The notes beneath the pieces are model-generated. The model worked only from the letters and a program-made list of their open reading frames with translations, searched no databases and was not told the DNA's origin. Of a DNA stretch of 64,000 bases, positions 3,001 through 4,961 are shown piece after piece. The stretch's first letter is position 1. Each line of letters begins with the position of its first letter. The translations under genes were made by a program, and so were the position numbers. Source of the DNA: an uncultured Streptococcus sp. (lineage in GTDB: Bacteria; Bacillota; Bacilli; Lactobacillales; Streptococcaceae); the NCBI GenBank assembly GCA_963533485.1, contig CAUSPE010000005.1:2509-66508 (forward strand). Reading direction: 5' to 3'.

Positions 3001-4961
3001 GTTGTCTCATTGATTTTCTTATAAGTGACTTCAGGGGTGATTCGGTGGTTATTGATAAAGACTTGATTGAACTGTTGCACCTGTCCTGGCAAAGTATGTC
3101 CATTCAAGGTGTATTCCTTGACACGAGGGAAGGCTTGGTCAATCACTGCCTTGAGGACCTTAGACTGAATCGTATCATAACTCACCTTGCTATCATCAAC
3201 AGCCGGACCTGTTTCTTTCTGGGCAGGAGTATCATCCGCTTTTACACCTTCTTGATTGTCTGTTTTAACGCTGACAACCGTACGGTCATTGCTATAAGTT
3301 CCTGCCTTGAGAAGGATCTTCTTCTCATTTTTAAGATTCTCATTGACCGCCCCAGGTAGGGTCACTGTGTCAAAGAGATTTACATCATTGTTGCTGGCAT
3401 TGAGTTGTCCATCTGACTTGAGAGTGATAGAAAGACGATTTACAGAACCTGGTTCTGGTGCTGCCACACGGTTGCCTTTATACCATGTGCTATTACCTGG
3501 AGTTTTGTATTCCCAGAACCAGCCACCTTGGTCATATCCAACAAAAACATTGTTCTTGGTATCTTTAAATTTCAAGAAGACACCAAAGCGTGATTTGCCC
3601 TTTTCAGAATCATCTTTGAAGGTTAAATCAACTGTCGCATTTCCATTAGCATCGACAGTCAATCCTTGTTTTTCAAACAAGGCTGGTTTGCCATCATTGT
3701 CATTTTGGGCCGTTGAAGACAATTGATTGTAGCGAACACCCTTTTCTTCACGAATAGTGACTGTTCCTTGTTGCTCTTTATTCGCTACTGTTTGCCATTC
3801 AGGAGTCACTGTCTTAGGTGTTTCAGGTTTAGCAGCTGCAGGTTTATCCTCTTTTGGTTTTTCTTCAGCCGGTTTTTCTTTCTCTTCCAAGTCTGCTGGT
3901 TTCACACTTGAAATTCCCTGTATGTGGTCTTGGATCCATTTTAGTTGAGCTGGTGAGAAGAGAATACCGCCACTCCGTTTTCCAACTACACCATTTTGGT
4001 GAACACCGACCAGTTTGCCTTCTGTATCAAAGATACCGCCGCCACTAGCGCCTGGTTTTCCTCCTTGGTAACCAATCCCTTGGACACCTTCTCCGTATAG
4101 TTCCGCAAAATCAACTGTAGTATTGACAATCGGATTCAATTTCCCTTCTGGATAACCAAAGACATGGAGCTTATCTCCGATTTTCTTAACTACTGGCTTT
4201 TTGGTTACTTCAACAGGCGTATTTTCTAGAACTGTACGTAATCTCACTAGGGCCAAATCATTTTTGAAGCCTTTCAAATAGCCTTCACGATCCCAATGAA
4301 TAATATCTTTCTTGCTAAACTTGACATCTGGCAGTCCTGGATATGAGATGCTATAGATATCTCCATCCCCTTGATCATTATCCACAACCTTACGGATATT
4401 GCCGTCTTGGCTGTCCTTGATAAAGTTATGAGAAACCGTCAAGACAAGGTCTTTAGCAACGACAATACCGCTACCTTCTCCTGATGGCGTCTTGATCTTA
4501 ACAGTCGCGCCGTAGTTTAATTCCCCATTGGTAGTCTTAGCCACATCTTCTGGGACGAGCTTGCCAGTATCTTGGGCCAATTGATCCTTGTCAACTTCGC
4601 GCCCATTGTCTTCAGCTTTCTCCAACTTATCTTCTAATTCTTTTGGCAGATTGCTTGGCTTTTCAGACTTTTCTTTTTCTTGAGCCAACAACTCTTCTTC
4701 TGTTTGAGGGCCTTCAGTAGTTTCAGCTGAACCAGGATTCTGAGCGGCAGCTTCCTTGTCAAAATCGTGCCCCTCATCACTAGCCGTCTTATCCAAATCA
4801 GCTAGTTCACTCGGCAAATTATCTGTTGAACCAACCCTTGCCTGATCAGCCAAAACTGGGGCAGTCGCAAAGAAAGTCGCTCCAATCATCACTGAAGCTA
4901 CCCCAAGCGTAAACTTACGAATACTGAACTTACAGCGTTTTTCAAAAAATCGTTTATCCAT
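1..4961 (-). CDS. eng: YSIRK-signal surface endo-alpha-N-acetylgalactosaminidase (GH101, SpGH101/EngSP-like) with an extra N-terminal trypsin-like serine protease domain; 3' end runs off the window
   Basis: Manual translation from ATG at 4961 (AGGAG upstream): [27 protein letters not shown] (YSIRK/GS-type signal). GH101 catalytic motifs [11 protein letters not shown] and RFAIEWGHG are present. The same frame reads ...[11 protein letters not shown] at the window edge. Absent from the ORF track, consistent with no stop codon in the window. Confidence 0.95.

Follow-up and report, generated by a model that had tools for sequence, protein, structure and literature searches.

A conserved chymotrypsin-fold module of the GhTrp-like family on the wall-anchored GH101 O-glycanase of commensal streptococci: a putative latent surface protease

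In a 64,000-nucleotide stretch of DNA from an uncultured Streptococcus sp. (assembly GCA_963533485.1, contig CAUSPE010000005.1, positions 2,509 to 66,508; this whole stretch is hereinafter the window), the ATG at position 4961 opens a minus-strand frame that encodes an S. oralis-like GH101 O-glycanase and contains, ahead of the glycosidase domains, a segment that is a complete, triad-bearing chymotrypsin-fold domain of the GhTrp-like family, GhTrp being the trypsin-like domain in the IgA1 protease (M26) from Gemella haemolysans represented by Protein Data Bank (PDB) entries 9ECT and 7UVK. The frame exits the window at its left edge, and the full gene, in the genome of origin (G000:C5), is a 2,122-amino acid (aa) open reading frame (ORF) with a C-terminal LPATG; with a YSIRK signal at the N-terminus and the LPATG anchor at the other end, the protease module is an N-terminal passenger on a wall-anchored protein. 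The initial annotation of this DNA correctly stated that the gene is missing from the ORF track; it is a single minus-strand ORF that starts at 4961 and runs past the window edge, which likely explains the omission. The reading that we prefer, with a probability of roughly 55%, is that the module is a latent surface protease of narrow specificity for which GH101 serves as the carrier; the proteolytic activity, the latency, the host substrate and the independence of the two active sites are what we infer here.

The module and its functional residues map to the window as follows:

3912..4568, minus strand: GhTrp-like chymotrypsin-fold (S1B-like) module, residues ~132-350, delineated by PF13365, the 9ECT match and the Z score of the model
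4428..4430, minus strand: catalytic His178, invariant in the 26-module alignment
4257..4259, minus strand: catalytic Asp235, invariant in the 26-module alignment
4044..4052, minus strand: oxyanion-hole Gly304 and nucleophile Ser306, invariant in the 26-module alignment
3975..4001, minus strand: His321-Gln322-Asn323-Gly324 (S1-pocket strand) and the loop 324-329, from the alignment to 7UVK/9ECT and V8

The initial annotation had proposed a V8/Spl-like serine protease at 3915..4520, and its His178 (4430-4428), Asp235 (4259-4257), Ser306 (4046-4044) and quoted motifs are indeed found there. The S1 domain that it anticipated was recovered by profile search, with Pfam Trypsin_2 (PF13365) covering residues 163-320 over the full length of the profile (positions 1-144 of 144; E-value 1.8e-11, above the curated cut-off), and the order of His, Asp and Ser together with the G-x-S-G motif is that of the S1 (S1B-like) peptidases. 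The closest relative with a solved structure is GhTrp: the phmmer match to 9ECT has an E-value of 2e-37, versus 4e-7 for the next match outside GhTrp, and profile comparison gives 7e-92 versus 5e-15 for the next solved S1 structure; the ESM Atlas yielded generic trypsin-like clusters only. The anticipated S1 fold was obtained as well. An AlphaFold2 model of the module, built from a 26-row alignment, has a mean predicted local distance difference test score (pLDDT) of 88.6 and a predicted template modeling score of 0.89, and superimposes on 9ECT with a Z score of 31.2 and a root mean square deviation of 1.9 Å over 203 residues at 35% identity. The next structural neighbors are the Bacillus intermedius glutamyl endopeptidase (BGP, 1P3C; Z 22.0) and Esp and V8 (Z ~20), and all 995 aligned chains score at least 8, the best being S1 proteases, which identifies the fold as that of chymotrypsin. 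In a second model that includes the preceding linker, residues 39-133 mostly have pLDDT below 50 and the fold begins near residue 135 (window ~4559), so that the domain lies where the initial annotation placed it, with a start that is farther upstream.

The module shares with the MEROPS S1B enzymes (BGP, V8, Esp, Spl and the exfoliative toxins; Z 19-22) a cysteine-free fold, the triad and the S1 histidine; identity to these freely secreted proteins is 17-26% (18-26% by structural alignment for the V8/Spl comparison), so that "V8/Spl-like" holds in a loose sense, the GhTrp-like module being the more precise family at 35%. Compared to V8, the loop that precedes the serine is one residue shorter, and the nucleophile is followed by GGG rather than SP. 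His321 aligns with the histidine of the V8 GIHWGG motif, as expected of a glutamyl endopeptidase, whereas the position of the V8 S1 threonine, five residues ahead of the nucleophile, is occupied by Gly301; this residue is Ser in other GH101 copies and Thr in the second modules of the sialidases described below. In chymotrypsin numbering, we take His321 to be His213 and the V8 threonine to be Thr190, with the roles that these residues presumably have in glutamyl endopeptidases. Because the module retains the S1 histidine but has Gly in place of Thr, its P1 preference may be polar and cannot be called Glu. The loop 324-329 that follows the pocket strand is, by alignment, the counterpart of loop 2 (868-872), which closes the S1 pocket of GhTrp; the only run with pLDDT below 50 inside the module, residues 325-327, falls within it.

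GhTrp shares with the module the triad, the HQNG strand, the RSGG motif and the C-terminal helix, and differs in its M26 carrier, in belonging to a separate clade, in a loop 2 that is one residue shorter and in having been assayed and found inactive. According to PMC11970125 and PMC9637739, GhTrp, both with and without its 33-residue N-terminal extension, did not cleave chromogenic peptides, an E. coli library for proteomic identification of cleavage sites (PICS), Boc-Glu-OPh or IgA1, and no interaction with the M26 partner was seen by nuclear magnetic resonance. Loop 2 lies across the S1 pocket, which is thus occluded (PMC11970125). The authors propose a pro-enzyme and leave a lost function possible (PMC11970125, PMC9637739); activation through pro-peptide removal that creates a new N-terminus is a proposal in PMC11970125, and Redzic et al. 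point to exfoliative toxin A as a precedent for a substrate found late (PMC9637739).

The mechanism that we favor combines these observations with the domain context. GhTrp-like modules would be portable, catalytically equipped units that mitis-group streptococci and Gemella display on wall-anchored proteins, at the end farthest from the cell. Loop 2 would keep the S1 pocket shut until the module is engaged by a specific folded glycoprotein of the host or, alternatively, until the N-terminal linker is cut off near residue 132-135. Once opened, the module would make one or a few cuts, and the GH101 chain would act as the anchor, the stalk and a co-localizer at O-glycosylated mucosal surfaces, with the glycosidase and protease sites working independently. 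The case for latency and narrow specificity is by analogy with the inactivity and occluded S1 pocket of GhTrp, and the matching loop is the least confidently predicted part of the module. Complex prediction for the module and its N-terminal linker gave a score of 0.00, which carries no weight either way.

The conservation of the catalytic residues spans all carriers. Across 26 modules that share 21-92% identity, the triad, the oxyanion glycine and, in the S1-pocket strand, His321, Gln322 and Gly324 are all invariant; the motifs are intact in each of the 98 distinct modules of the collected loci (domain E-value <1e-20), and the triad motifs and the S1 histidine are kept in 120 of the 120 GH101 fusions listed. 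Among representatives of 50% identity clusters (52 rows covering more than 150 profile positions), all 39 modules that score at least 180 bits retain the triad. In the 120 listed stalk-type proteins, the triad motifs are complete in 145 of 145 modules, with Asn at the position of the S1 histidine in 97 of these, hinting at different specificities. These patterns bear on the possibility that the protease fold is a non-catalytic adhesin that grips a host protein, the triad being vestigial or structural, an option raised in PMC11970125 and PMC9637739. The lack of measurable GhTrp activity and the location at the tip of a stalk would suit such a role, and two paralogs, P0168 and P0169 (106-119 bits), in which His is replaced by Ser, and Ser by Gln or Lys, nevertheless keep the fold, the signal peptide and the anchor. 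However, such catalytically dead forms are rare (2 of the 42 representative modules above 100 bits), the triad and the oxyanion Gly are otherwise invariant in every carrier class down to 21% identity, and P0168 and P0169 have lost the HQNG pocket strand along with His and Ser, which implies that these residues decay once catalysis goes; we therefore regard an adhesin as improbable.

The fusion to GH101 recurs in many genomes of the genus. Copies of the module in named S. oralis strains are 98-99% identical, and the module has 2,958 relatives in a search of proteins 909-2,893 aa long, all 120 of those listed being GH101 fusions. In a sample of 301 genomes from the genus, the module is matched in 136 and GH101 in 117; the GH101-type module is present in 90 of the 91 genomes (counted by genome from tables, with two frameshifted and two fragmented cases included) with a GH101 domain that shares 96% identity or more with the one described here, and in 7 of the 26 with more distant GH101 domains. 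In 78 of 80 named or metagenome-assembled loci, the module and GH101 are in one ORF, the other two ending at contig edges. When 401 genomes from the class are compared, profile matches that are strong (E-value <1e-60) occur in this genus only, in 12 genomes including that of origin, and one other genus has weak matches in short frames (1e-13 to 1e-16; five genomes); the Gemella module, known from its PDB entry, lies outside this sample. The single ORF and its recurrence in these 78 loci rule out a frameshift or assembly chimera, and a recent foreign insertion is dismissed on the G+C content of 0.43, compared to 0.42-0.45 elsewhere in the gene, and on the presence of the module throughout S. 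oralis/S. mitis-type genomes.

A few loci depart from this arrangement. The complete genome G152 (L064) has a frameshift 3' of the module, in the A-rich tract that directly follows, and the draft genome G135 (L159) has one inside GH101_N; these may be sequencing errors or real switching. What looks like a split gene in G235 is due to a scaffold gap of N. In other streptococci (L053:8183-12382, minus strand; L054; L055), a GH33 sialidase precedes GH101 at the place where the protease module would be, in proteins of 3,084 aa and, in one frame, 6,585 aa (Pfam was run on L053 only); by its architecture, this fusion would be a single-chain enzyme that desialylates and then releases.

The module is not confined to GH101. 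The genome of origin encodes a second copy, on a 2,025-aa YSIRK/LPATG GH29 alpha-fucosidase (G000:C7:39637-45714; L071:1138-7212, plus strand), which is 34% identical over the matched part, has intact triad motifs and starts with IINGG. This start resembles what we take to be the activation N-termini of the chymotrypsin clan. GH33 sialidases of 1,907-2,026 aa (L044:2337-8057, L045, L046, P0143) carry two tandem modules, the first of which begins directly at the predicted signal-peptidase site; in the 1,907-aa NanA of S. mitis B6, the N-terminal domains are described as "of unknown function" (PMC2828477). The ZmpA IgA1 proteases (M26) contain one module each, which follows the N-terminal anchor and precedes the catalytic region. 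Finally, stalk-only wall proteins (L041, L042, P0122-P0142, P0144, P0148) have one or two modules, and Pfam recognizes in them, besides the module, just G5 domains or repeats and the signal or anchor. In P0144 and P0148, no more than a few residues separate the predicted signal cleavage from the start of the module, which is equivalent to residues 132-135 here, and 10-45 residues intervene in others, so that stalk-only forms suggest where the natural N-terminus of the module may lie. Choline-binding proteins with a trypsin-like domain, which may or may not be related to the GhTrp-like module, are mentioned in PMC6593409 and PMC12211801.

In a 50-row tree of modules, those of GH101 form one clade (99/99) and those of ZmpA another (100/100) with a stalk-only protein as its sister (97/87), and the GH29 modules together with the first sialidase modules comprise a third deep group, although long outgroup branches make the deep joins unsure. 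The topology suggests several independent recruitments, probably from a family of stalk-displayed proteases, and the occurrence of the module on GH29, GH33 and M26 enzymes and on stalk-only proteins as well argues against a dedicated coupling to GH101.

Several considerations weigh against the latent-protease reading. The triad conservation alone is no proof of turnover. The module is under selection, which speaks for the reading, with pairwise dN/dS (ratio of nonsynonymous to synonymous substitution rates, from subsamples of 40 out of 88 unique genes) of 0.036-0.075, similar to the GH101 accessory domains (0.04-0.09) and below the linker (0.13-0.16; residues 40-134), with 0.02-0.03 in the GH101 barrel, but the loci were picked by likeness to the module, which biases the figure downward. 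Many copies, namely those of ZmpA and the second sialidase modules, are internal, so activation through a free N-terminus would require a further, hypothetical cleavage, and the literature searched, in its available text, shows neither proteolysis by, nor a substrate of, any GhTrp-like module. In addition, mucosal glycans are the substrates of three of the four types of catalytic carriers, as would suit a genuine synergy.

The remainder of the gene consists of the following features:

4848..4961, minus strand: YSIRK-type signal peptide, residues 1-38 (PF04650 on residues 7-31, E-value 4e-12; TIGR01168 on residues 1-39)
4569..4847, minus strand: acidic N-terminal linker, residues 39-131, predicted disordered (28 Asp and Glu among 93 residues; most pLDDT <50)
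4668..4679, minus strand: left EKEK short direct repeat, residues 95-98, the left limit of the stretch missing in the pneumococcal-type gene
3798..3911, minus strand: linker rich in Pro, Glu and Lys, residues 351-388, containing the right EKEK repeat (3873-3884); length differs between relatives
3252..3797, minus strand: GH101_N domain, residues 389-570 (PF17995, E-value 2.7e-72)
2412..3170, minus strand: galactose-mutarotase-like domain, residues 598-850 (PF18080, E-value 1.6e-85)
1539..2411, minus strand: GH101 catalytic domain, residues 851-1141 (PF12905, E-value 5.6e-122; matches to PDB 3ECQ and 5A55-5A59)
3..1538, minus strand: GH101 beta-sandwich, domain 5 and galactose-binding-like domains (Pfam)

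The gene extends 1,408 bases past the window, with an F5/8 domain, repeats and the LPATG anchor. Signal cleavage presumably occurs after Ala38, and the N-terminal linker, with two imperfect LPxEL...A.D.G repeats by alignment, is a possible pro-segment; the linker between the module and GH101_N varies from 36 to 80 residues among relatives. The protease had been placed inside the O-glycanase, which is correct for the chain and not for the glycosidase domains, the module being located between the disordered linker and GH101_N. The GH101 part itself is intact, as had been stated: the protein scores 3,624 bits against NCBIfam NF040533 (the SpGH101 family; cut-off 2900) and 407 bits against PF12905 (cut-off 25), the YVDVWG and AIEWG motifs are at 1886 and 1790, and Asp922, Asp1028, Glu1060 and Gln1132 map to Asp658, Asp764, Glu796 and Gln868 of the pneumococcal SpGH101, the first three in identical context. 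These three we take to be the residues with assigned catalytic roles; a "DDE triad" is named for GH101 in PMC11861894.

The lone exception among the 91 genomes, G098, encodes a 1,767-aa GH101 protein that aligns to about residue 94 and resumes at residue 360, after which 1,542 of 1,608 residues are identical to the protein described here. The missing 265 codons are flanked by the two EKEK-coding 12-mers, and the G098 junction has a single such copy, as would be produced by an in-frame loss through slippage or recombination between these repeats. In the best 120 of 298 sequence clusters, Trypsin_2 is lacking from every one of the 19 listed that cross the junction (10,269 member sequences, summed), and the seven that are named are all from S. 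pneumoniae; the other 101 match the query partially and carry Trypsin_2. Thus, pneumococcal SpGH101 has no protease domain, as the initial annotation had stated. A midpoint-rooted tree of GH101 with 32 rows nests the short form in a 100/100 clade whose remaining 17 rows all have the module; recombination is likely because two module-bearing genes have more distant GH101 domains. The comparison indicates that pneumococcal SpGH101 is probably a deletion derivative of the commensal gene. Apart from the lost 265 residues (the second linker repeat and the module) and another C-terminal repeat region, SpGH101 (Eng; 3ECQ, 5A55-5A59) has identical catalytic and specificity residues. PMC2828477 lists a 2,322-aa S. 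mitis homolog, entered as hypothetical, versus 1,767 aa in the pneumococcus. The same pneumococcal-type genome has the module on a 2,159-aa ZmpA (L052; G098:C1:1528000-1539000), so the family as such is not absent from this lineage.

The initial annotation had put forward a concerted scheme in which, on one chain, GH101 strips core-1 O-glycans and the attached protease goes on to cleave the mucin backbone thus exposed. The part of this proposal that stands is that both active sites are apparently intact. The fusion is stable, with a shared ORF at 78 of the 80 loci and a GH101-type module in 90 of the 91 genomes, the other carriers are likewise enzymes of mucosal glycoproteins, and release of the core-1 disaccharide by the GH101 part would be expected from its 96% identity, outside the module, to the pneumococcal-type enzyme. 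Metallopeptidase O-glycoproteases (mucinases) are of types such as M60-like and OpeRATOR; the whole 2,122-aa protein has no match to a metallopeptidase family at an E-value of 1e-5 and accordingly would not be of this metallopeptidase type (StcE is named as a mucinase type in PMC11861894). The proline/threonine/serine-rich (PTS) regions of mucins are poor in Glu and Gln, whereas the S1 histidine, aligned to V8, is of the glutamyl endopeptidase type. Mucin breakdown is usually modeled as glycan removal followed by proteolysis (PMC10830703), but wild-type-like GH101 takes only unsialylated core 1 (PMC11861894, PMC12550630), with a preference of about 3,100-fold in the pneumococcal enzyme, which is active without the module (PMC12550630); because Gln868 and Glu1253 of that enzyme are kept here, GH101 alone would clear only part of the mucin glycans. 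Given also that the module exists without any glycosidase, is missing in pneumococcal SpGH101 and has a relative that is inactive on a peptide library (PMC11970125), the coupling of the two reactions is weakened and we rate it as unlikely.

A broader variant, to which we likewise assign a low probability, is that the module is an active protease whose cleavage sites become exposed after glycan trimming and that mitis-group streptococci bolted independently onto sialidase, fucosidase, O-glycanase and IgA1 protease to obtain single-chain enzymes that trim and cut, the pneumococcus having deleted the SpGH101 copy; if true, salivary mucin breakdown would gain a step in which a wall-anchored enzyme cuts the backbone. 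Conceivably, though doubtfully, the module instead serves in maturation or shedding, cleaving the chain that carries it or other surface proteins of the bacterium, for instance to release or activate a passenger enzyme. Its recurrence beside flexible linkers on many large secreted precursors and its location in ZmpA are compatible with this role, and strict cis-specificity would account for the negative assays in trans. However, stalk-only proteins have no recognizable passenger, a cut beside the module would, given the C-terminal anchor, free the module and not the glycosidase, SpGH101 needs no module for activity (PMC12550630) and the GhIgAP 651-2201 construct behaved like the one without the module (PMC9637739).

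The gene is transcribed in relatives. In two raw-read RNA runs (of four used among 24 listed) from relatives that are mostly 85-95% alike, positions 3916-4368 are covered at depths of 5-11 and 27-59, the coverage runs unbroken into GH101 on the strand expected for the gene in the usual stranded library, and a 3,123-base contig from an RNA run bridges the module and GH101; positions 4369-4972 are nearly devoid of coverage, probably due to divergence. Upstream of the gene, one further feature was found:

5191..5227, minus strand: terminator-like hairpin downstream of an oligopeptide-binding-protein-like gene, by consensus match (mean of shuffled sequences, 0.1)

This hairpin suggests that the GH101 gene may be transcribed separately; no sigma-70 promoter match was found at 4900-5300. 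In the upstream region (5240-15720), the oligopeptide-binding-lipoprotein-like gene is accompanied by the end of a locus for polysaccharide, whose ORFs were assigned by eye as rhamnose-pathway, mutase-like, flippase-like and polymerase-like. Directly downstream is a YSIRK-type GH20/NAGidase hexosaminidase gene (G000:C5:1-990; L173:7353-15629; 2,759 aa in G011), which sits between GH101 and a penicillin-binding-protein-like gene and was not seen there in the pneumococcal-type genome. In L033:5231-15649 (plus strand), a single frame of 3,473 aa joins the module and GH101 to the NAGidase part of this hexosaminidase.

The architecture as such is not new: the legend of Fig. 2 in PMC12211801 (BMC Genomics 2025) reports an extra S1B peptidase domain on SpGH101 and ZmpA of commensal S. 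mitis/S. oralis strains compared with TIGR4, and positions 104-355 of NF040533 already take in the protease segment. With the fusion in print, and its nearest relative solved and inactive in assays, the architecture counts as known. The available text of PMC12211801 gives one sentence of domain prediction and does not go into the triad, the wider family, the way the deletion arose or any assay. A biochemical study of the GH101 fusion was not found in the literature searched, which leaves out most subscription papers and some supplements, and the available text of PMC6722419, PMC3518915 and PMC13436360 does not mention a trypsin-like domain under the terms searched. MdpS and MdpS2 of S. oralis, for which proteolysis of the mucin backbone is likewise proposed, are described as TsaD/TsaB homologs of unrelated fold, without a signal or anchor (PMC10830703, PMC12557822), so the module is neither of these.

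The GhTrp-like modules are a conserved family, found on at least four enzyme carriers and on stalk-only proteins, and this family view gives a handle on the function of the GhTrp-type domain, a question that dates from 2022, and makes it more testable, the stalk-only forms with the module close behind the signal peptide being good test cases. Should the module cut a host glycoprotein, it would represent an uncharacterized surface protease activity of common oral colonizers.

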